Source: Alphaproteobacteria bacterium
GTDB lineage: Bacteria; Pseudomonadota; Alphaproteobacteria; Micavibrionales; SZUA-601
NCBI GenBank assembly: GCA_965216395.1
Contig: OZ244156.1
Location: 648,765 to 712,764, forward strand
Direction: 5' to 3'
DNA length: 64,000 nucleotides
Shown here: positions 6,400 through 56,489 of the stretch, piece by piece
Layout of the letters: every line of letters begins with the position of its first letter
Position numbering within the stretch: position 1 is the stretch's first letter
Position numbers and translations under genes: made by a program
The notes under the pieces: model-generated
Told to the model about the DNA's origin: nothing
What the model saw: the letters and a program-made list of their open reading frames with translations, nothing else
Database searches by the model: none

Positions 6400-6407
6400 A
6401 TTTAAAA

Positions 6408-6650
6408 GTGACTTGGTTAACCGCAATTTTTACGTATTTTCTTATCTGGTGGACAGCTTTATTTATCGTTTTACCAATTGGCGTGAAACGTGATGAAAAT
6501 CCAGAAAAAGGGCATGATAGTGGCGCACCATTCAAAGCTAAACTTAAGCAAAAAATGATTATAACAACAATAATATCACTGTTTATTTGGGGGGTTATTG
6601 TTTTGTTGTTTGAAACAGGTTTTTTAAATTATCGACAGATTGTGAGTTAA
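6408..6650 (+). CDS. DUF1467-family small membrane protein
   Basis: 80 aa with a GTG start and two TM helices. The IWWTALFIVLPIGV...HDSGAP pattern is typical of the conserved alphaproteobacterial DUF1467 family. Confidence 0.65.
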   Translation: MTWLTAIFTYFLIWWTALFIVLPIGVKRDENPEKGHDSGAPFKAKLKQKMIITTIISLFIWGVIVLLFETGFLNYRQIVS

Positions 6651-6652
6651 TT

Positions 6653-6967
6653 ATGTTTTATATTAAGTTGTTTATTTTTATATGTTTATTATCTTTTGTT
6701 AATGTTAATTATAGTTATTCTTATGGTGATATAAATTTTAATGATGCGTGTAAATTTTACACCAAACATGTCGCTGATACGGATGTAGATTATTTAGATG
6801 GATATGATGTTTACGGTGAACCAGTTGTGCCTGCGGAAATAGAAACACATAAAGAACTTAGTTTTCCAAAAAAATTCTATGTTAATCTAAAATTTGAACA
6901 ATTGCGTCGACTTAAAGTATTAACGGATGAAAAAACTTTCAGCAGAGCTTTATGCGGGACAAATTGA
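6653..6967 (+). CDS. Hypothetical exported protein (possibly the 5' part of a frameshifted gene that continues to 7061)
   Basis: N-terminal signal-peptide-like segment (MFYIKLFIFICLLSFVNVNYSYS). A coherent 44-codon reading frame continues in the +1 frame from an A6 run at 6930-6935 to a stop at 7059-7061. Confidence 0.45.
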   Translation: MFYIKLFIFICLLSFVNVNYSYSYGDINFNDACKFYTKHVADTDVDYLDGYDVYGEPVVPAEIETHKELSFPKKFYVNLKFEQLRRLKVLTDEKTFSRALCGTN

Positions 6968-7057
6968 AATTGATCCGTTATTAGAGATTGTGAAATATAA
7001 TGGCCAAGAAATTAATCAAAGCGATTTTGAAGTTTTATGTATGCAATCGGGCCATTT

Positions 7058-8566
7058 TTAATAGGAACGTGCATAGATAACATCTAAGGTTGCGTCCCGT
7101 CCTGTCAATAAACATTTACCCAGTGATCCTGATTGATCTTGCGGGATAACACGAATGGTTAATTTCTTTTCTTTTAAAAGTGAGGTAGTGGCTTCAATAT
7201 CTTCACACCATTTACCACGCACAAATCCGGGATTTTTGTCATTATCAATAATATAACCATTATCTCTTTTAAAATGCGCATTGAGTTCATCGGGATGAGT
7301 CAGTGTTTTTAAATGTAGATCCCGATATTCTTTGGCTTGCTGAAATAATGCTTGATGGACATTATCTAAATAGGGCACAACATTCTCAATAAATTGACTA
7401 CGTGGTACAAAATCTGGTTTTGTTTCCATCTCATGACGTAATTTCATGGCTAGTTTTCCACTGTCAACATCGCGTTGGCCAATTTCTAAAACAATGGGAA
7501 CGCCTTTTTTTATCCAATCCCATTTTTTGTCTTTGGCGTCTCTATTACGATCATCGAGGTGAATTCTAATTTTTTCATCGCCATAAAATTGTTGCTTTAC
7601 GTCGTCTATAATATTCTTTGCATAATTGAATATAGCCTCTTTTGTATTCTCATCACGGATAATAGGGACAATCACAATTTGTTTCGGTGCAATTCTTGGC
7701 GGCAAACGCAGACCAATATCGTCACTATGCGTCATGATTAGGCCGCCAATTAAACGTGTGGAAACTCCCCATGATGTTGTATGAACATGTTGCATATCGC
7801 CTTGATCATCTTGATATTGAATATGCGCGGCTTTAGCAAATGTTTGACCCAAATAGTGCGACGTGCCCATCTGTAAGGCCTTGCCGTCTTGCATCATGGC
7901 TTCTAATGTATAGGTTTCCACGGCGCCTGGGAAACGTTCATCTGGTGATTTAGGGCCCGTGATTACAGGAATAGCCATATAATCTTCGATCAGAATACGG
8001 TAAATTTCTAACATTTGTAAGGTTTCAGACTCGGCTTCGGCCGCTGTCGCATGGGCTGTGTGTCCTTCTTGCCATAGAAATTCTGCTGTTCTAAGGAAAA
8101 GGCGGGTGCGCATTTCCCAACGCATAACATTGGCCCATTGGTTCAGTTTAAGCGGAAGATCACGATATGACTGAATCCATTTTGACATAGATTCCGCAAT
8201 CACCGTTTCCGAAGTAGGTCGGATGACCAAAGGTTCGTCTAATTGGCCATCAATTTTTAATTGGCCATTGTCGTTGGTTAATTTTGTATGGGTGACCATC
8301 GCCATTTCTTTGGCAAACCCGTCAATATGTTCAGCTTCTTTTTCAAACAAACGCAACGGGATTAAGAGTGGAAAATAACAGTTATCATGTCCAGTTTCTT
8401 TGATCATATCATCAAGCAAGCGCTGAATTCTTTCCCAAATGCCATAACCCCATGGTTTAATGACCATACATCCACGCACCATAGAATTTTCGGCCATATC
8501 GGCCGCTTGGATAACATCTTGATACCATTGTGGAAAATTTTTCTTACGTGTCGTTGACAAAGACAT
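7058..8566 (-). CDS. proS: Proline--tRNA ligase, Thermus/archaeal-eukaryotic-like type (no INS editing domain, C-terminal Tyr)
   Basis: 502 aa. Class II motifs (RPTSET, FLRTAEFLWQEGHTAH, GTSHYLG). N-terminal FPQWY...VRGC. The protein ends ...ARSY, as in Thermus-type ProRS. Confidence 0.92.
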   Translation of the reverse strand: MSLSTTRKKNFPQWYQDVIQAADMAENSMVRGCMVIKPWGYGIWERIQRLLDDMIKETGHDNCYFPLLIPLRLFEKEAEHIDGFAKEMAMVTHTKLTNDNGQLKIDGQLDEPLVIRPTSETVIAESMSKWIQSYRDLPLKLNQWANVMRWEMRTRLFLRTAEFLWQEGHTAHATAAEAESETLQMLEIYRILIEDYMAIPVITGPKSPDERFPGAVETYTLEAMMQDGKALQMGTSHYLGQTFAKAAHIQYQDDQGDMQHVHTTSWGVSTRLIGGLIMTHSDDIGLRLPPRIAPKQIVIVPIIRDENTKEAIFNYAKNIIDDVKQQFYGDEKIRIHLDDRNRDAKDKKWDWIKKGVPIVLEIGQRDVDSGKLAMKLRHEMETKPDFVPRSQFIENVVPYLDNVHQALFQQAKEYRDLHLKTLTHPDELNAHFKRDNGYIIDNDKNPGFVRGKWCEDIEATTSLLKEKKLTIRVIPQDQSGSLGKCLLTGRDATLDVIYARSY

Positions 8567-10405: not shown

Positions 10406-11088
10406 TGCATGTTTCACCCATCTTAAAACTGGATCATATTCACCATATTTATAACCGCGGTCAGGCTAATCAATTGACCGTTTTGGACGATATTAATTTA
10501 CATGTCAATCAAGGTGAAATTGTGGCCTTAGTGGGACAATCAGGAACAGGTAAATCAACATTATTGCATATTGCGGGTCTGCTTGATCGCGCGGCTTCTG
10601 GTCAGGTGATCATCAATCAAAAAGATACAACTGATTTAAATGATGATCGACGCACCGCAATACGTCGTGAATCAATTGGTTTTGTCTATCAATTTCATCA
10701 TCTTTTACCTGAATTTACCGCCCAAGAAAATGTGGTCTTACCACAGCTTAGCCACGGTATTTCAACTGAAAAAGCACAAAAAAGAGCAGCTGAATTACTG
10801 ATAGAAATGGGTTTAAAAGAACGTTTAAACCATCGCCCTAACCAGTTATCAGGTGGAGAGCAACAACGTGTTGCCATTGCGCGTGCCTTAGCAAATAAAC
10901 CAGATTTGATTTTGGCTGATGAACCAACAGGTAATTTAGATGTCAAAACCGCGGATCTTGTTTTTGATATGTTTTTAGATATTGTGCGTAGTCAAGGCAG
11001 TGGCGCTTTAATTGCTACACATAATCCACAACTCGCCAAACGTATGGATCGAATCCTTAAAATCGAAGGGGGACATATTATTGTCTGA
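10402..11088 (+). CDS. lolD: Lipoprotein-releasing system ATP-binding protein LolD
   Basis: Walker A (GQSGTGKST), ABC signature (LSGGEQQRV) and Walker B (LILADEPT). Confidence 0.92.
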
Positions 11089-23608: not shown

Positions 23609-24646
23609 TTGATTGTGGCTGATACACGCTTTTATAGAAAACCAACACCATTATCCCTTCGTGAAGTTATTGAAATTTCCGGTGCTGAAGTTGTTTCTGG
23701 TGTTGATTTGGATAAAACAATATCTGATGTTGCACCTATTCACACAGCGCAAGGTGATGAACTTAGTTTTTTAGATAATAAAAAATATTTAGATATATTT
23801 ACTCAAAGTCAGGCGGGTTTCTGTTTTGTTCACCCAGATCAGGCTGATAAAGCGCCTAAAGGCATGATTTTACTATTATCTAAAGAGCCTTATAAGGCTT
23901 ATGCTCTATCGGCACAGGCTTTTTATCCAAAACCATCTTGGAATAAGACTTATATTGCTGAGAATGCTTTTGTTCATCCAAAGGCTAAAATTGGACGCCA
24001 CTGTATCATAGATCATAATGTCTACATTGGACGTGACGTAGAAATTGGTGATCAATGTTGGATCCGCCCAAATACGGTTATTGGACCAGGTTCTGTCATT
24101 GGTAATAACACGATTATTGGGTCTAATAGTAGTTTGAGTCACTGTATCATTGGACAGGGGTGTCAGTTTTTACCTGGTGTGCGTATTGGACAAGATGGGT
24201 TTGGTTTTGCCATAGACCCTGCGGGTCACGTTCCTGTGCCACAATTAGGACGTGTTATTATTGGTGACCGTGTGTATATCGGCGCCAATACCACGATTGA
24301 CCGTGGCGCGGGGCCAGATACCGAGATCGGTGATGGGACAATGATTGATAATTTGGTGCAAATTGCTCATAATGTGAAAATTGGTAAATTTTGTATTATT
24401 GTTTCCCAAGTGGGTATTTCGGGCAGTTCGATCATTGAGGATTATGCCGTATTAGCCGGGCAGGTCGGTGTCGCAGGACATATAACCATTGGTCGTGGTG
24501 CACGCATTGCTGCGCAATCTGGTTTGATGCGTGATATTCCCGCCGGTGCAGAAGTGATGGGTTCTCCAGCTGTGCCATTGCGTGATTATTTTAAACAGGT
24601 TGCAACCTTAGCAAATTTAACGAAAACTAAAAAAGCGAGATCATAA
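23609..24646 (+). CDS. lpxD: UDP-3-O-acylglucosamine N-acyltransferase
   Basis: 345 aa with left-handed beta-helix hexapeptide repeats. Starts at TTG (or GTG at 23615). Precedes fabZ. Confidence 0.92.
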
Positions 24647-25110
24647 TGAATGAAAATACAGAGATTGTTTTAGATGTTAATCGAATTATGGATTTAATCC
24701 CGCATCGTTATCCATTTTTACTTGTGGATAAATTGACTAATATTGTTAAAGGTAAAAGTGCGGTTGGTATTAAAAATGTCACTATTAATGAAGGTTTGTT
24801 CCAAGGACATTTCCCTGGTCATCCAATTTTTCCAGGTGTTTTGATTGTTGAGGCCATGGCACAAACAGCCGGTGCCCTCGTGGTACACAGTTTGGGTGAT
24901 GGTGCCAAAGATAAACTCGTCTATTTTATGACGATTGATGAAGCACGTTTTCGTAAACCCGTTGTCCCTGGTGATCAATTGCGTTTAGAAGTCGAAGTTA
25001 TTCGTTCACGTGGTGCCGTTTGGAAATTCAGTGGCAAAGCGTATGTGGGTGAAACACTTTGTTCACAAGCCACTTATTCAGCCATGATCATGGATAAAGA
25101 CGATCAATAA
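24646..25110 (+). CDS. fabZ: 3-hydroxyacyl-ACP dehydratase FabZ
   Basis: LPHRYPFLLVD...FQGHFPGHPIFPGVLIVEAMAQ hotdog-fold signature. 1-nt overlap with lpxD. Confidence 0.95.
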   Translation: MNENTEIVLDVNRIMDLIPHRYPFLLVDKLTNIVKGKSAVGIKNVTINEGLFQGHFPGHPIFPGVLIVEAMAQTAGALVVHSLGDGAKDKLVYFMTIDEARFRKPVVPGDQLRLEVEVIRSRGAVWKFSGKAYVGETLCSQATYSAMIMDKDDQ

Positions 25111-25150
25111 ACATTAAGTTATATATACCATAAAATAATATAAAATTTTA

Positions 25151-25179
25151 TTGACATTTTGAATAAATTTTGTTAATTT
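25151..25179 (+). promoter_or_regulatory. Putative sigma70 promoter of the 498-aa orphan gene (TTGACA-N17-TAATTT)
   Basis: Perfect -35 hexamer at 25151-25156, 17-nt spacer, AT-rich -10 at 25174-25179, in a 103-bp very AT-rich gap. GAGG SD lies 8 nt before the ATG at 25214. Confidence 0.5.
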
Positions 25180-25213
25180 GTTAAAAATTACTTAATTTGT
25201 TGAGGTTCTGACG

Positions 25214-26710
25214 ATGTCAAATACAAATGCAGCGGTAGAAAATGACCCAGAAATTAAAAAGAAAAAAGAAGCTATCGCAAAAATTGCAGAATTTGTGCCT
25301 AATATTAAAAATTCAGTTGAAAATGCTGCGAAATATTATCCGAGAATTTATCGGAACGCGCAAAAAGCGATCTATGAACTCATGCTTGAAACGATGGAAA
25401 ATCATTTTTCTGAGAGAATTGAAAGCTATTATAGAGAGTTAGAATGTAGAGATAAACATCTTGTTAAAGATGAAAATATTATAAATAAAATTTTTAAAAA
25501 GAAAAAAACAAAAGTAATTCCAAATCAAAAAAAATATCCGTCACAATATGAATGTTATATGCGTCACCAAAATACGGCAGAATTTCATAAAAAAACGATT
25601 CTTGAAAATTTAAAAATTTATGCACAAATTGATCATTCTTATGCAAATTTTTTAGATAAAGATAATTTACAATATAGAAATGTAAATCAGATTCCTGAAG
25701 AAATTGTATCAAAAGAAACACAAGCAGAGATTTATAATCAAAAAATTTCTGTAGAAAGTCTCGATATTTTTCTCAATGAAAGTTTTTATTTCTATCAAAA
25801 ACGAACATTTTTAGAGCAATTTGGCTCTTATACAAAAATACAGATTGATAACTCGACCATAGATTTCACCGGTCTGCTATATGTTTTGAAAGAGTTACCA
25901 AAGAAAATTGACCTTTCGGAGAAAGCACACGAAAGCCGGGATGAATTTATTAAAAATATGGAACATGATACCACGACTGAGGTTGGTGTTTCAGAATTAA
26001 TGCTATTGAATCTTGATCAACTGGAAGAAATGGCTTTAACTGCAAAAAGGCAGGTCGATTTTTTCTCTGGGCATTTAGATAGAATACAAAAATTAGATAT
26101 GGTCTTAGCGACCGACAAAAGAGATGATAAAAACAAATCATCACAGAAAAGCTTCTCTAAAATGACAATAGAAGAAAACTGTAAATACTTTTCATATAGT
26201 TTGTCCTCTATAGAAAAATCCGAATATGGCAGCATCCATGAACAAGAAGGATTTTCTCGTTTTATTCCAGAATATCGTGATACGATTAAAGACCCTATAA
26301 TGGCGCAAAAATTGATAAATAGGTTTAAAGATAATGGGCTTGATGCCTATTCTTTACCAAATAGTTGTGCTGTAGCGCTTGATTTAACAGGCCAGAAACC
26401 TGAAATAGACGATGGCACCATTGCTAATCAAATCAATGATATATTGAGTTCTGATTCTGATCTTTATTATAGTTCTAAACAAGTTGCTATGACACCAATA
26501 ACAGCAAGAAGCGGTGTTTTATCAAAAAAAGACGAACCAGTCTTTTTTAACGGTTGGACACAGCTGCTTTATAAAGAAGGAGGTGTAACAGACCTTCGTG
26601 ATAAAAAAGCCATCTTATTACGTGTTGATGAAAACCGTATTACTGCAACTGAAATTATCAAACAGGTAGATAAAATAGTTGCTGTGATTAAAAAATCGGT
26701 TATCCAATAA
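25214..26710 (+). CDS. Hypothetical protein, 498 aa, lineage-specific orphan (no recognisable domain)
   Basis: Long uninterrupted ORF with an SD, its own promoter and its own terminator. K/E/N/D-rich. No signal peptide, TM segment or catalytic motif recognised by eye. Much more AT-rich than the flanking fabZ and lpxA. Confidence 0.75.
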   Translation: MSNTNAAVENDPEIKKKKEAIAKIAEFVPNIKNSVENAAKYYPRIYRNAQKAIYELMLETMENHFSERIESYYRELECRDKHLVKDENIINKIFKKKKTKVIPNQKKYPSQYECYMRHQNTAEFHKKTILENLKIYAQIDHSYANFLDKDNLQYRNVNQIPEEIVSKETQAEIYNQKISVESLDIFLNESFYFYQKRTFLEQFGSYTKIQIDNSTIDFTGLLYVLKELPKKIDLSEKAHESRDEFIKNMEHDTTTEVGVSELMLLNLDQLEEMALTAKRQVDFFSGHLDRIQKLDMVLATDKRDDKNKSSQKSFSKMTIEENCKYFSYSLSSIEKSEYGSIHEQEGFSRFIPEYRDTIKDPIMAQKLINRFKDNGLDAYSLPNSCAVALDLTGQKPEIDDGTIANQINDILSSDSDLYYSSKQVAMTPITARSGVLSKKDEPVFFNGWTQLLYKEGGVTDLRDKKAILLRVDENRITATEIIKQVDKIVAVIKKSVIQ

Positions 26711-26730
26711 TAGTGATCATAAATCATTGT

Positions 26731-26766
26731 AACACCCTGTCATTTTTTGTGATGGGGTGTTTGTTT
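26731..26766 (+). terminator. Rho-independent terminator of the orphan gene
   Basis: AACACCCTGTCA / TGATGGGGTGTT form a 12-bp stem (two G-U pairs) with a 7-nt loop, followed by TGTTT. Lies 20 nt after the stop codon. Confidence 0.6.
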
Positions 26767-26798
26767 ACATCCAATAGATCACAGATTATAACCGTATT

Positions 26799-27608
26799 AT
26801 GACTGATAAATCTTACATCCATCCCACAGCTATTATTCATGATCAAGCGAAGATTGGTTGCCATGTTTATATTGGCCCTTATTGCATTATTGGAGAGAAT
26901 GTTGTTCTTTCTGATCATTGTCGGTTACATGCCCATGTCGTTGTTGACGGCTATACTGAAATCGGTGAGGGGACAGAAATTTTCCCATTCGCCAGTATTG
27001 GCACTGCACCACAAGATTTAAAATATAAAGGGGAAGCATCGCGCTTAATCATTGGTAAGCGGAATAAAATTCGTGAACATGTGACGATGAATCCAGGTAC
27101 ACAAGATGACAATATGGTGACACGCGTTGGCGATGATTGTCTTTTTATGATGGGCAGCCATGTCGCTCATGATTGTATCGTGGGTAATCATGTGATTTTG
27201 GCTAATAATGCGACCTTGGCTGGTCATGTTAAGGTGGGTGATCGTGTTATTATCGGGGGGCTCTCGGCTGTACGACAATTTGCCCGTATTGGCAAAGGGG
27301 CAATTATTGGGGGTATGACAGGCGTTGAAAATGATGTCATTCCCTATGGTTTAGTTATGGGCGAGCGTGGATCGTTAGCGGGGCTTAATTTGGTTGGTCT
27401 TCAGCGCTCTGGATTGACTTCACAACAAATTAATGATTTACGTGCAGTTTTTAAAACGCTTTTCCAAAGCGATGAAGGCGTTTTAAACCAACGTTTAGAA
27501 AAAGTAGCCAATGATTATCAAGACAATGATTTAGTCAATGAGATTGTCGAATTTGTAAAAAATAAAAATAAATTAGCGATTTGCCAACCTAAAACTCATC
27601 ATGCCTAA
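26799..27608 (+). CDS. lpxA: Acyl-ACP--UDP-N-acetylglucosamine O-acyltransferase
   Basis: 269 aa with hexapeptide-repeat beta-helix and a C-terminal helical domain. Followed by lpxI and lpxB. Confidence 0.93.
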   Translation: MTDKSYIHPTAIIHDQAKIGCHVYIGPYCIIGENVVLSDHCRLHAHVVVDGYTEIGEGTEIFPFASIGTAPQDLKYKGEASRLIIGKRNKIREHVTMNPGTQDDNMVTRVGDDCLFMMGSHVAHDCIVGNHVILANNATLAGHVKVGDRVIIGGLSAVRQFARIGKGAIIGGMTGVENDVIPYGLVMGERGSLAGLNLVGLQRSGLTSQQINDLRAVFKTLFQSDEGVLNQRLEKVANDYQDNDLVNEIVEFVKNKNKLAICQPKTHHA

Positions 27609-28431
27609 ATTTAAAAAACTTGCGATTTTATCTGGTGGCGGTGACTTACCTAAAAAGGTTGCCGAAAAATGCCATAAAGAAAATATTCCTTATTTTGTTA
27701 TTGGTCTTAAGGGGTTTGTCGATCATGGATGGATCGATCAGCACCCACATCAAATCATTCCGATAGGTTTTGCAGGTAAGATTTTTAAAACACTTAAAAG
27801 CCAACAAGCTGATCATGTTGTTTTAGCTGGAAATATTCGTCGTCCTTCTTGGAAAGAAATGATTCCCGATATTCGTGGTGCTTTGTTAATAAAAAAATTT
27901 AAAAAAGGCGTGCAAGGAGATAATAGTATTTTAACCGTGATTGCTGATGAAATAGAAAATGAAGGTTATAAAGTAATCGGTGCGCATGAAATATGTACAA
28001 ATCTTTTGGCCGTTGAAAAAAAATATACGAATAAGAATCCCACACAGGAAGATTTGTTGAATATAAAAAATGGCTTTAACATTTTGGCCGATATTGGCCG
28101 CGCCGATATTGGTCAATCTCTCGTGATTCAAGATGGTCTTATATTAGGTGTTGAAGCAATTGAAGGCACGGATGAATTGGTTAGACGTTGCGCGCAATAT
28201 AAAAGAAAAACGAAACATCCCCTTTTAATAAAAGGCAAAAAACCACATCAGGATGAGCGGATTGACTTACCAACGATCGGGTTAAAAACGGTTCAAAATG
28301 TTGTTCGTTCTGGTTTTTCTGGGATTGCTATTCAAGCAGAGAAAACGATTTTTCTTGAACAAGAACAAGCCATTGCTTTGGCTAATCAGCACAATGTCTT
28401 TATCATTGGTTTTAAGCCCAGTAGCGAATAA
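27601..28431 (+). CDS. lpxI: UDP-2,3-diacylglucosamine diphosphatase LpxI (DUF1009)
   Basis: LAILSGGGDLP N-terminus and DIGQSLVIQDGLILGVEAIEGTDELV motif. Sits between lpxA and lpxB as in other alphaproteobacteria. 8-nt overlap with lpxA. Confidence 0.85.
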   Translation: MPKFKKLAILSGGGDLPKKVAEKCHKENIPYFVIGLKGFVDHGWIDQHPHQIIPIGFAGKIFKTLKSQQADHVVLAGNIRRPSWKEMIPDIRGALLIKKFKKGVQGDNSILTVIADEIENEGYKVIGAHEICTNLLAVEKKYTNKNPTQEDLLNIKNGFNILADIGRADIGQSLVIQDGLILGVEAIEGTDELVRRCAQYKRKTKHPLLIKGKKPHQDERIDLPTIGLKTVQNVVRSGFSGIAIQAEKTIFLEQEQAIALANQHNVFIIGFKPSSE

Positions 28432-51899: not shown

Positions 51900-52202
51900 A
51901 TGTCAAATGAACAAACTGTTAAAGAATTTTATGTTTTAGCTTTATTAGCTGAAAACAAGGGGGATACATTATTCCTTAAAGAAAAATATGATTCTAGTTC
52001 AGGTCTATATTTTTGGTCTTTAAGCAAGTGGAGTGAAAAGAATTCTGTTAAAGAATTTACGACTAAATCTGAAGTAAATGATATGAAAAGACAGATGAAA
52101 AAAAACTTTACCTTGTTTGGTGAATGTGAACAATCCGAAGAAGAAAAGTTAAAACAAATTAGATCTTTAAAAATAAAAACTGTGACAATATCTGTTTCTT
52201 AA
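51900..52202 (+). CDS. Small orphan protein S1 (100 aa), paralog of the 53154..53438 ORF
   Basis: Has an SD and a consensus promoter. Shares MSN..., (Y/H)VLALL(A/N)ENK, L(F/Y)LK and the C-terminal I..L.(I/V)...(I/L)S(V/L) with the second ORF. AT-rich. Confidence 0.6.
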   Translation: MSNEQTVKEFYVLALLAENKGDTLFLKEKYDSSSGLYFWSLSKWSEKNSVKEFTTKSEVNDMKRQMKKNFTLFGECEQSEEEKLKQIRSLKIKTVTISVS

Positions 52203-52229: not shown

Positions 52230-53027
52230 CTACCGAAACAGCACCAAACTAAGGGCGAGGGCGGCCATACCAAGGACGAGACCGTAAACAGGCTCATGCC
52301 CTTTGGAATAACGTTTGGCGGCGGGCAGGAGTTCATCCACGGCCAAAAACACCATCGCACCCGCAATCACGGCGAAAACAGCCCCATAAATAAAAGGTGA
52401 AAGGTAAGGTGCCAATACCAAATACCCAATCAAGGCGCCAACAGGTTCAGCCAAGGCTGATAATAGACAAGCAAAAAAAGCTTTTCTACGACTGCCCGTG
52501 GCATAATAAACCGGAATGGCGATCGAAACGCCTTCGGGGATATTATGAATTGCAATCGCGACGGCCAATGGCGCCCCAACAACCGGGTTATCTAAGGTGG
52601 CAAAAAATGTTGCCAAGCCTTCAGGGAAATTATGTGCGGTAATGGCGAGAGCCGCCATTAAACCAATGCGCCCAACATGTTTTTTATTGACTATTTCTTC
52701 TTCGGTTAAATTCGCGTGTGGATTGGGGATAAAACGATCTAAAACGACCAACAAGGTTACACCGATAAAAAAGAATAAAGTCGCATAACCATAGGCGAAT
52801 TGATCACCATAAATATCCAAAAACGCAATATGTGATTTATTAAATATTTCCACCAAAGACACATAAACCATGGCACCGCCTGCAAAAGCAAGACCGAATG
52901 ACAAAAGCCGCGCATTATCCCGGTTCACGGGATAAACAACCGCTAAGGCGCCTAATAATGTTGCCATCGCCGCTCCCATACAAACAGCAAAAGCCAATAA
53001 TACCTCATGTGAAAAAATCATATCCAT
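52230..53027 (-). CDS. zupT: ZIP-family zinc transporter ZupT
   Basis: 265 aa, polytopic. HNFPEGLA and HNIPEG motifs. Confidence 0.9.
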   Translation of the reverse strand: MDMIFSHEVLLAFAVCMGAAMATLLGALAVVYPVNRDNARLLSFGLAFAGGAMVYVSLVEIFNKSHIAFLDIYGDQFAYGYATLFFFIGVTLLVVLDRFIPNPHANLTEEEIVNKKHVGRIGLMAALAITAHNFPEGLATFFATLDNPVVGAPLAVAIAIHNIPEGVSIAIPVYYATGSRRKAFFACLLSALAEPVGALIGYLVLAPYLSPFIYGAVFAVIAGAMVFLAVDELLPAAKRYSKGHEPVYGLVLGMAALALSLVLFR

Positions 53028-53115: not shown

Positions 53116-53153
53116 GGGTATGAATAAAGTTTAATATATTGGTAAAAAAAACT

Positions 53154-53438
53154 ATGTCTAACACTCAAAAAAATCATGTTCTTGCTTTGCTAAATGAAAA
53201 TAAGCCATCACTGTATTTAAAAGCAGTCAATGCCGGACCAGATAACGATGCTTATGATTTAACTAAGGACAAAAATGATCAAAATATAGTTTATTTTGAG
53301 GATTACATGGAAGCGAGCAGTTTTAGGAAAAAAGTTTTAGAAAGCAAAACAATATTTTACAAGGGAATTTTAGATAGAGAAAGATATAGTGACGAAATTA
53401 TCGGCCTCAATGTAATAGATACTTCACTTTCTCTCTAA
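53154..53438 (+). CDS. Small orphan protein S2 (94 aa), paralog of 51900..52202
   Basis: The ATG at 53154 ([17 protein letters not shown]) is preferred over the tracked TTG at 53139 because it aligns with the S1 N-terminus. AT-rich. Confidence 0.55.
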
Positions 53439-55383: not shown

Positions 55384-55824
55384 ATGCCCGTACATCACGA
55401 GAAAAAAATATTATCCTTTACGGCGATTCAAATGTTTGATTTGGTCGCCGATATTGATGCGTATGATCAATTTTTACCATGGTGCAAGGCCTCTCGAGTT
55501 TGGAAAGAAGAGGGGGTGTATGTTTATGCTGACTTGATTGTTGGCTATAAAATCTTTCGAGAAAAATTTACGTCAAAGGTAAAACTAGATAAAAAAAATA
55601 AAGTGATAGCGGTTGAGTATCTCTCTGGTCCGATGAAAAACCTCACGAATAAATGGCAGTTTGTTGATTTACAAAAAGGACAGTGCGAAATTGATTTTTA
55701 TGTCAGTTTTGAATTTAAATCACGCGTCCTGCAAAAATTGATTGATCGGTTTTTTGATATCGCCTTTAAACGCATGGTCAACGCCTTTGAAAAACGCGCT
55801 GAAGAAGTTTATTCTCAGATATAG
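55384..55824 (+). CDS. SRPBCC-family protein (RatA / COQ10-like polyketide cyclase-dehydrase fold)
   Basis: 146 aa. The F.LV.DI..Y..FLPWC pattern is typical of the RatA/COQ10 family, which is commonly linked to lipA in alphaproteobacteria. Confidence 0.7.
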   Translation: MPVHHEKKILSFTAIQMFDLVADIDAYDQFLPWCKASRVWKEEGVYVYADLIVGYKIFREKFTSKVKLDKKNKVIAVEYLSGPMKNLTNKWQFVDLQKGQCEIDFYVSFEFKSRVLQKLIDRFFDIAFKRMVNAFEKRAEEVYSQI

Positions 55825-56489
55825 TTTGTTTGAGAAATAACATAGTCGATTTGTTCTTTAATCTCTGGTGGATAGGCAATATCACCACGTTCACCATATT
55901 TTTTAATCCGCAAAAATTGGCCCCAAACGCGTTTTATCGCCCCTTGATCATGGAACCAATTATCTGCATTTAAATTTTCTAAATCAACATCAGAGTATTC
56001 AGGTGAATAAGGGATCGCGCGAAAAGTAACCCAGGGTAAAAAACGTTTCAAAGTGAGCATTTGTCGCGTTGCAGCATGGCTTTTGGCAATAAATGATACC
56101 GTTTTGAGAGAAGAAAAGTCATAAAGTAATAGAGATTTTTCAACTTCTTCTAATGTATTTTCTGCTGTATTTTCGACTATAAATTGTATATTTGGGTAAT
56201 CGCCCGTGTTAATGGCTGCCATGATACGATCCGCAGCACTTATATGGTCTTCACCTGTTTTTTCAAAAGCTGGAATACCGCCATTAATAAAAACCAAAGG
56301 TGCAATCTCTTTTTCGAGAGATTTAATAATCGTATCAATTAACACATGTTTGGAAGACCAGGTTCCAAAAACAAATAAAGCATCACTTTTTCGATCATCA
56401 AAAGGTTGAAAACAAACGGCACTGACCAAGGCAATGAGATCATCATTAAGTTCAGGCACAGCAGGGTTGAGGGAGATATCTCTTTTCAT
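55815..56489 (-). CDS. DUF218 (YdcF/ElyC-like) domain protein
   Basis: 224 aa with a GG...E...ENTAENT-type motif (FINGGIP...VENTAENTLEEV). Convergent 10-nt overlap with the SRPBCC gene. Confidence 0.55.
   Translation of the reverse strand: MKRDISLNPAVPELNDDLIALVSAVCFQPFDDRKSDALFVFGTWSSKHVLIDTIIKSLEKEIAPLVFINGGIPAFEKTGEDHISAADRIMAAINTGDYPNIQFIVENTAENTLEEVEKSLLLYDFSSLKTVSFIAKSHAATRQMLTLKRFLPWVTFRAIPYSPEYSDVDLENLNADNWFHDQGAIKRVWGQFLRIKKYGERGDIAYPPEIKEQIDYVISQTNYI

Follow-up and report, generated by a model that had tools for sequence, protein, structure and literature searches.

How does a gene with no detectable relative come to lie inside the lipid A cluster, between fabZ and lpxA, two genes that are normally adjacent? 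The question is raised by a stretch of 64,000 nt (hereafter the window) from an alphaproteobacterium of the Micavibrionales (lineage SZUA-601; assembly GCA_965216395.1, contig OZ244156.1), in which the fabZ–lpxA gap covers 1,688 nt (25111-26798) and contains a sole open reading frame (ORF), ORF498, of 498 aa (25214-26710, + strand). An earlier note, made from the letters of this DNA, had given the same layout (1.69 kb with one 498-aa ORF) and had seen in it a self-contained, recently acquired or lineage-specific unit in the middle of an essential operon. The reading that we favour, with a probability of about 0.7, is that ORF498 was inserted with a promoter of its own at a permissive boundary between transcription units, where a terminator would have been recruited from the host spacer and the lpxA promoter retained.

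The junction was compared with that of other genomes. Genome and metagenome contigs were scanned with LpxA, which gave 160 alphaproteobacterial loci among the matches listed, a scope that applies to all counts from these scans; the closest were 64-70% identical in LpxA. Of the 156 loci that extend far enough upstream, 154 have fabZ immediately before lpxA, so that the two genes are indeed normally adjacent, as the earlier note had stated. In those loci the gap is estimated at -23 to +120 nt (median about -8). Six closer relatives, with an LpxA 72-81% identical, were found by a word-index protein search with LpxA. For two of them, L161 (Logan SRR33375167, a 57-kb contig) and L162 (GCA_964496065.1), the fabZ-lpxA spacers are 105 and 97 nt long respectively and hold no extra gene, and in both loci synteny with the window extends from uppS to lexA, over about 15-16 kb. 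In the four others (L163, L166, L171 and L170, the last from a hydrothermal-vent metagenome) the 3' end of fabZ is followed by a spacer of 90-108 nt and then by lpxA. Comparison of this junction between related genomes, which the earlier note had proposed, thus turned up no ORF498 orthologue, either in the 160 scanned loci or in those of the close relatives. At the nucleotide level the insert, leader included, has no similar sequence elsewhere in the window, in the 160 loci or in the close relatives.

Across the 16-kb block shared with L161 and L162 the lengths differ by ~1.57 kb. The insert accounts for this difference and is therefore the only sizeable one in the block. Proteins of the window are 55% to 90% identical to those of L161/L162 (BamA 79/82, LpxD 81/82, GltA 89/90), which would correspond roughly to a genus-to-family distance; FabZ is 77-83% identical to its counterparts in the close relatives. 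By parsimony, absence from the close and the more distant relatives alike points to a single gain, and these comparisons indicate that ORF498 was gained on the branch of the window organism. The gain cannot be dated as recent, because the nearest genomes without the gene show just this ~55-90% protein identity.

The opposite history, in which the clade had ORF498 from its ancestor and the relatives lost it by deletion, appears highly improbable. A single loss would suffice if all six close relatives belonged to a single sister clade, and the native-like composition of the gene (see below) would fit a long residence. But the relatives at ~70% LpxA identity (L165, L167-169) have a fabZ-lpxA gap of -4 to +21 nt and, like the 154 of 156 listed loci, lack the gene, so that a gain followed by a loss would be needed. 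Moreover, no homologue was found in 1.84 billion representative proteins, and the spacers of the relatives hold no remnant of ORF498.

The same junction is altered in another way in two alphaproteobacterial metagenome-assembled genomes, which are broken exactly between fabZ and lpxA by a rearrangement (L005, 2936-5011; L074, 5013-5867, - strand). A methyl-accepting-chemotaxis-like gene lies upstream of lpxA in L005 and unrelated genes in L074, with no orphan insert in either. The fabZ-lpxA junction thus occasionally serves as a breakpoint elsewhere too.

The relatives also allow the edges of the insert to be placed. On the left, the edge is the fabZ stop codon (TAA, 25108-25110), and the leader of ORF498 shows no alignment with the relatives' spacers past the fabZ end. 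On the right, the 88 nt between ORF498 and lpxA (26711-26798, + strand) align with the spacers of the six relatives (alignment A3) and represent the ancestral fabZ-lpxA spacer. The invariant block of A3 reads TGTAAC-N4-(T/G)GTCA, then T-TGA, and the window spacer is close to that of L162 throughout (TGTAACAC..GTCATT.TTTGTGATGG.G...TTTGTTTACA...TTATAA). The insert thus covers about 25111-26710, i.e. the leader and ORF498, with no 3' untranslated region of its own, and the right junction falls within 26711-26727, where the spacer is not conserved. The ORF498 stop lies 17 nt before the conserved box of the spacer (26728-26742), which is about the place of the fabZ stop in the relatives, 7-26 nt from the box. 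The ORF498 stop is followed by two more in-frame stops (TAA TAG TGA, 26708-26716). Each insert edge closes with ATC(C)AATAA (25102-25110 and 26702-26710), a 9-nt microhomology that may mark a recombination junction or be due to chance; beyond it, no meaningful direct or inverted repeats flank the insert.

This preserved empty site excludes an origin of the gene in place. De novo birth is one debated origin of bacterial orphan genes, or ORFans (PMC12315717), and for ORF498 it would agree with the lack of a homologue anywhere searched and with an amino-acid composition driven by AT. As an explanation of this locus it is essentially refuted: the ancestral spacer measures just 90-108 nt and is still intact downstream of ORF498, no relative has 1.6 kb of precursor DNA at the site, and a frame of 504 codons in DNA of 31% GC is not expected by chance.

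ORF498 is a genuine protein-coding gene and not a chance ORF. Its open frame runs for 504 codons, against 85±18 (maximum 181) in 2,000 dinucleotide shuffles of the same 1.7 kb, and the other five frames over the same DNA hold 30-68 stops. Coding potential was scored by a three-periodic Markov model whose training set was the 49 remaining window ORFs of 150 aa or more, these being scored in turn by leave-one-out. The in-frame score of ORF498 is 0.070 bits/nt versus 0.077±0.024 for the leave-one-out reference, i.e. within 0.3 standard deviations. Its annotated frame is the best of the six, all the others being negative, and each of the five 100-aa blocks has a positive score in frame and negative ones in the other frames. 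In its choice of synonymous codons ORF498 resembles the window genes; its GC content at third positions (GC3, 22.7%) is somewhat lower than theirs and falls to 10% in residues 101-200. Relative to the window average, K, Y, N and E are enriched 1.45- to 1.7-fold, G (0.37-fold) and W (0.21-fold) are strongly depleted, and A, V and P stand at about 0.65-0.7-fold; the low GC of ORF498 is due mainly to this amino-acid composition. Taken at face value, the sequence indicates a frame maintained by selection.

That ORF498 is a functionless passenger, decaying and with little or no transcription, seems distinctly unlikely. Such a state would agree with the low GC3, which fits relaxed constraint under AT-biased mutation, and with a poor confidence of structure prediction, and conservation cannot be shown for a gene without homologues. 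But a decaying gene is hard to reconcile with 504 stop-free codons next to frames that hold tens of stops, with codon-phase statistics that are normal throughout, with an intact start codon and Shine-Dalgarno sequence, and with the derived hairpin that follows the gene. Small genomes, besides, tend to delete useless DNA.

The leader of ORF498 (25111-25213, + strand; 103 nt, 17% GC) is borne by the insert and holds a putative promoter and a ribosome-binding site, whose motifs are both present as they had been read earlier. The putative sigma-70-like promoter (25151-25179, + strand) consists of TTGACA (25151-25156), a 17-nt spacer and TAATTT (25174-25179), directly preceded by a TGn (TGT) extended -10 element at 25171-25173. 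The predicted transcription start of ORF498 lies near 25186. TAATTT keeps T1, A2 and T6, that is 3/6 consensus positions, and because the -10 matches at just these three, a consensus promoter scan omits 25151-25179. When TTGACA-N16-18-TAnnnT is considered on the + strand in intergenic DNA, the site at 25151 is the only one in 64 kb. The Shine-Dalgarno sequence GAGG (25202-25205, + strand) is placed 8 nt before the ATG of ORF498. It is plausible that ORF498 has its own promoter and Shine-Dalgarno sequence. No feature of the sequence speaks for the strong expression that the earlier note held to be probable.

Downstream of ORF498, the most conserved part of the spacer is the non-coding box TGTAAC-N4-TGTCA (26728-26742, + strand), whose columns are invariant in A3. 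Among 169 fetched loci, TGTAAC-N4-KGTCA was found only in L161 (6908-6922), L162 (6930-6944), L163 (280-294) and L166 (402-416), at the same place as in the window; L170 (about 38-52) and L171 (about 207-221) carry a variant. The box is followed by ..TTTGAT and TTGCTATAG and, in the fabZ-lpxA spacer, is peculiar to this clade. It would probably serve lpxA as a regulatory, promoter or operator element, and its AAC motif resembles, in our own reading, the -35 element of extracytoplasmic function (ECF) sigma factors. The box was also considered as a regulon motif and this was not established: with one mismatch allowed it occurs 9 times in the window versus 8.1 by chance. One such one-mismatch occurrence, TGTTAC-N16-TGAT (57039-57014, - strand), is found 28 nt upstream of the start of the phospholipid gene pgpA and may mean nothing.

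The box overlaps a hairpin (26731-26766, + strand) with a 13-bp stem, G-U pairs included, and a 5-nt loop (26731-26761), followed by UGUUU. Its folding energy is -18.3 kcal/mol, with a z of -5.6, and of -4.4 in the comparison with the relatives. The homologous stretches fold weakly, with z near 0: -6.2 kcal/mol in L162, -3.0 in L161, -1.7 in L163 and -5.3 in L166. Relative to L162, the changes ACTTGG to ACCCTG and GGTGCA to GGGGTG extend a short GTCA/TGA core to 13 pairs. The alignment thus presents the strong hairpin as a derived state of ancestral spacer DNA, found in this lineage only, and this derived state coincides with the presence of the new gene upstream. We regard the hairpin as a putative intrinsic terminator of the ORF498 transcript. 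In the earlier note a terminator had been counted as part of the acquired unit; the hairpin is real, at the energy given above, but it was made from the ancestral spacer and was not imported with the gene. Since the 88 nt past ORF498 are ancestral spacer, the unit is not fully self-contained either.

Immediately past the hairpin comes a candidate lpxA promoter, TTTACA-N17-TATAAC (26764-26792, + strand), which ends 6 nt before the lpxA ATG. L162 has an equivalent, TTTACA-N17-TATAAA, likewise 6 nt before its lpxA ATG. This element would be the retained lpxA promoter, and the lpxA mRNA would then be leaderless or nearly so. A spacer of ~100 nt with conserved promoter-like blocks before lpxA suggests that the junction was probably already a boundary between transcription units in this clade. 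The insert therefore probably does not lie in the middle of an operon, as the earlier note had described it.

From these elements the following course of events can be proposed. A cassette of 1.6 kb would have been inserted right after the fabZ stop, on the window organism's own branch; it would have comprised the AT-rich leader, bearing a promoter of sigma-70 type and a Shine-Dalgarno sequence, and one gene of 498 codons. The site would have been permissive, as in this clade, unlike in most alphaproteobacteria, fabZ and lpxA already lay ~100 nt apart, and an insertion at a junction that was already a transcription-unit boundary would have been tolerated. The old spacer would have been kept downstream of the new gene and, in this lineage alone, altered into a strong hairpin, which would end the ORF498 transcript just upstream of the retained lpxA promoter candidate. 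The inserted DNA would be of outside origin, most probably transferred horizontally out of a gene pool that sampling has missed, and ORF498 would have been resident for long enough, or its donor would have been similar enough, for the gene to look compositionally native.

What does the composition of the insert say about its origin? Its AT-richness is real, with 31.1% GC in ORF498, 17% in the leader and 300-nt windows down to 22%, versus 38.8% for the whole window. The contrast with fabZ, put earlier at ~50% GC, was overstated: fabZ has 39.1% GC overall and 45% at its 3' end only. Ordinary genes of the window are equally AT-rich (skp, 31.0% GC; a GNAT gene, 30.9%). With its low GC matched by skp and the GNAT gene, and with host-typical codon usage and Markov score, ORF498 is not marked as foreign by composition. 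The corresponding loci of the relatives L161-L171 have 40.5-44.2% GC against the 38.8% of the window, and the whole genome (1,649,955 bp) has about 39%. Low GC is in any case ambiguous, as it may reflect a foreign origin or fast evolution under AT-biased mutation (PMC12315717). The typical codon usage and coding score of ORF498 do not support its description as recently acquired; codon statistics so close to native speak against its having arrived very recently.

Several vehicles and artefacts were considered and rejected. For an insertion sequence or transposon, there is no Pfam or NCBIfam transposase and there are no terminal inverted repeats at 25111 and 26710. For a group II intron or retroelement, neither RVT nor any other Pfam family matches, and no Rfam family reaches the gathering score in the window. 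For a prophage fragment, there is no PHROGs match and no phage similarity by tblastn. For an assembly artefact, the flanks are seamless and the codon usage is native. Nor does the insert display a donor or mobility signature in the form of an integrase, a tRNA target, flanking repeats, or phage or plasmid similarity; the 64-kb window holds no tRNA. With an origin in place excluded by the empty site, and divergence from a resident gene unsupported since no paralogue was found, horizontal acquisition from an unsampled source remains after elimination of the other origins.

The product of ORF498 would be a soluble, hydrophilic protein of ~58 kDa (calculated mass 57.9 kDa, isoelectric point 6.1). 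Its grand average of hydropathy is -0.63 and its maximum 19-residue Kyte-Doolittle mean is 0.77. A simple hydropathy test detected no signal peptide and no transmembrane segment, and the N-terminus (MSNTNAAVENDPEIKKKKE) is polar. A motif scan revealed no Walker A, HExxH, CxxC, GxSxG, RTX or similar catalytic motif, and no nuclease, ATPase, TIR or SIR2 motif. In this respect the earlier remark that no signal peptide, transmembrane segment or catalytic motif can be recognised agrees with our results. The protein was also described as rich in K, E, N and D; these residues make up 32.7% of it, at the top of the range for the window, although this richness is not unique there. KKKK runs occur at residues 15-18 and 95-98. 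No internal repeats were found in ORF498, and no paralogue in the window.

Homology searches were all negative. A word-index search of 5.8 billion proteins, even at E≤10, and a full phmmer search of 1.84 billion representative proteins returned ORF498 itself only. As the protein collection includes the proteome of this genome, no paralogue of ORF498 is detectable in the genome. No family was matched in Pfam (E≤10), NCBIfam or PHROGs, none of 5,027 PADLOC-DB models at E≤1 and no PDB sequence at E≤10, and tblastn against metagenome, viral, plasmid and phage DNA gave no match. ORF498 is thus an orphan (an ORFan, or taxonomically restricted gene) without homologue in every search. Every other window ORF of 150 aa or more matches a family, that at 55815-56489 by a weak, sub-cut-off DUF218 match alone, so ORF498 is the sole orphan among ~50 genes.

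Structure prediction adds little. In single-sequence mode, AlphaFold2 gave a predicted local distance difference test score (pLDDT) of 32.5 for the full-length protein and of 47.7 for residues 340-498 (the C-terminal 159) alone. With the C-terminal model, Foldseek found nothing in the PDB below E = 1; its top matches, the C-terminal domains of pyridoxal phosphate enzymes with a template modelling score ≤0.42, were regarded as noise. The N-terminal two thirds are probably helical, and the models give a weak hint of a possible alpha/beta domain at the C-terminus. The homology and structure checks suggested in the earlier note thus brought out no known family and no fold match, and its description of the gene as lineage-specific stands, both by these searches and by the absence of ORF498 from the junction of the relatives.

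As to its role, our best guess is that ORF498 encodes a dispensable, niche-specific accessory protein, for example a defence or interaction factor, rather than a lipid A enzyme. The last was rejected as there is no match to an Lpx, Fab, Lap or acyltransferase family (Pfam at E≤10, NCBIfam), nor to the PDB at E≤10. An accessory factor of lipid A or envelope synthesis is a different proposal: in E. coli FabZ and LpxA use the same acyl-ACP (acyl carrier protein) pool, and ORF498 might modulate the sharing of R-3-hydroxyacyl-ACP between them. Its position in the bamA-skp-lpxD-fabZ-lpxA-lpxI-lpxB cluster is the sole evidence for this. We consider it very unlikely. Having a putative promoter of its own, and being separated from lpxA by the hairpin, ORF498 would not be coupled by translation or transcription as the lpx genes are; it lacks a transmembrane segment, a signal peptide and any match to Lpx, Lap or acyl-ACP families; and relatives with the same pathway manage without it.

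A more elaborate version sets out from the FabZ/LpxA branch point, where the syntheses of lipid A and of phospholipids are in competition for R-3-hydroxyacyl-ACP. ORF498 would then represent a new family and a new fold, acting as a lineage-specific regulator or adaptor at this branch point, and the rewiring of the spacer into terminator and promoter would have been selected because it retunes lpxA-lpxI-lpxB. To this we attach very little credence.

The earlier note had put forward a secreted host-interaction factor or an envelope-related function, and no feature of the sequence speaks in favour of either. As a secreted effector directed at a host or a competitor and exported by a Sec-independent system, ORF498 would be suitably hydrophilic and lineage-specific, free of a Sec signal and rich in K, E and N with its two KKKK runs, and the genome is small (1.65 Mb). 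This seems unlikely nevertheless. The 64 kb show no secretion system, neither an effector domain nor repeats were found in the protein, and A-rich DNA is expected to encode KKKK runs. The window encodes ordinary functions (respiration, the pyruvate dehydrogenase complex, glycolysis, NtrYX, ComEC) with no sign of host association, and one of the relatives comes from the hydrothermal-vent metagenome mentioned above.

A single-gene anti-phage defence or abortive-infection (Abi) protein, or another selfish gene of the mobile pool, would account for a lone, AT-rich orphan ORF with its own promoter, placed between conserved genes and absent from relatives. Lactococcal Abi genes and the "morons" of prophages look like such lone-ORF units. 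On the other hand, ORF498 matches nothing in PADLOC or PHROGs and no phage or plasmid DNA by tblastn, carries no nuclease, ATPase, TIR or SIR2 motif, and has no defence or mobility genes adjoining it; a gene of this specific kind stays an outside chance, though it ranks first among the roles considered, before the secreted factor, the functionless passenger and, last, the lipid A-linked factor. Integrative elements, for their part, are a documented source of ORFans (PMC2718499).

Some results weigh against the insertion scenario that we prefer, or at least against parts of it. For the promoter, the three TTGACA-N16-18-TAnnnT motifs present window-wide equal the chance expectation, and half of the -10 positions deviate from consensus; for the terminator, what trails the hairpin is a brief, broken U-tract (UGUUU). 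The putative ORF498 transcription unit is drawn from such sequence signals. The searches brought out no donor or homologue, the horizontal origin being reached by elimination, and a codon usage so close to native is unlike that of a fresh transfer. As to the role of the protein, which is a guess on our part, the structure models were unusable (pLDDT 32.5 and 47.7) and no fold match fell below E = 1. The layout of the locus, the lack of ORF498 in the relatives, the ancestral nature of the spacer, the derived state of the hairpin, the coding signal and the orphan status are shown by the data; we infer, rather than observe, promoter activity, terminator activity, the horizontal origin and the function of ORF498.

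How does the locus compare with known cases? Bacterial ORFans have been reviewed (PMC12315717), and those of E. coli (PMC3514957) and their origin from integrative elements (PMC2718499) have been described. Like them, ORF498 is free of homologues, richer in AT than the genome average, absent from syntenic relatives and of untraceable origin. Unlike ORFans, which are typically short, it has 498 aa, a full coding signal and host-like codon usage; it also stands alone, with neither foreign genes clustered around it nor an integrase or any other marker of an integrative element, and the empty site preserved in the close relatives excludes an origin in place.

According to what Hendrix and colleagues reportedly described, prophage morons are independent promoter-gene-terminator units between conserved genes. 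ORF498 shares with them the status of an additional gene that has a putative promoter of its own, is followed by a hairpin, is lower in GC than its surroundings and lies between genes adjacent in relatives. It differs in lying outside a prophage, with core housekeeping genes as flanks, a terminator derived from the host spacer and no phage homologue. With lactococcal Abi genes and other single-gene defence systems it has in common a lone, AT-rich ORF for a family-less cytoplasmic protein of several hundred residues, with a putative promoter of its own, but it matches 0 of the 5,027 PADLOC models and no mobile element is present in its context.

As in the canonical bamA-skp-lpxD-fabZ-lpxA-(lpxI)-lpxB cluster, the envelope genes of the window are all present, intact and in standard order; the cluster departs from it by a junction of 1,688 nt, compared with ≤120 nt in 154 of 156 loci. 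It comprises bamA (from 20752), skp/ompH (from 22994), lpxD (23609-24646), fabZ (24646-25110, + strand; NCBIfam TIGR01750 and NF000582 above cut-off), lpxA (26799-27608, + strand; NF003657 and TIGR01852 above cut-off), lpxI (27601-28431, identified by an NCBIfam equivalog model) and lpxB (from 28444), lpxA being the first gene of lpxA-lpxI-lpxB. The overlaps of 1 nt between lpxD and fabZ and of 8 nt between lpxA and lpxI, reported earlier, agree with these coordinates. After lpxB come gltA and gltX, on the opposite strand. In L165 (9875-12526), L167 (9581-10557), L168 (8587-9275) and L169 (3451-4427), lpxB is followed not by gltA but by several small ORFs in a row (two to five, of 74-243 aa) with no Pfam match, a different lineage-specific addition to this cluster.

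Other observations were made in the window. The prolyl-tRNA synthetase gene (7058-8566, - strand) is of the archaeal/eukaryote-like type (TIGR00408 proS_fam_I, 490 bits, above cut-off); this type is unexpected in an alphaproteobacterium, and an old transfer or replacement is possible. In the 658-nt gap that precedes it (6400-7057), an ORF of 104 aa (6653-6967, + strand) with a hydrophobic N-terminus and no Pfam family adjoins a membrane-like ORF of 80 aa (6408-6650). Two ORFs of ~100 aa without Pfam family (51900-52202 and 53139-53438, both + strand) flank a ZIP transporter gene (52230-53027, - strand). They share an N-terminal MSN.Q...VLALL.ENK..L.LK (pairwise E = 6e-4) and may be small lineage-specific paralogues. 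Finally, the dnaE ORF as listed has a TTG start and overlaps the end of lolD by 77 nt (11012-11088), its true start being probably further downstream.

No new mechanism or function is revealed here, and such orphan genes are commonplace whenever a new lineage is sequenced. If the reading proposed above is true, the locus would nevertheless be a well-bounded example of an orphan gene entering a bacterial core operon, since the empty ancestral site in the relatives would place the edges of the insert to within ~17 nt. It would also show a host spacer in the course of becoming a terminator beside a retained downstream promoter. The locus would in this way be useful both for the debate on the origin of ORFans (PMC12315717) and for the question of how far essential operons tolerate insertions.

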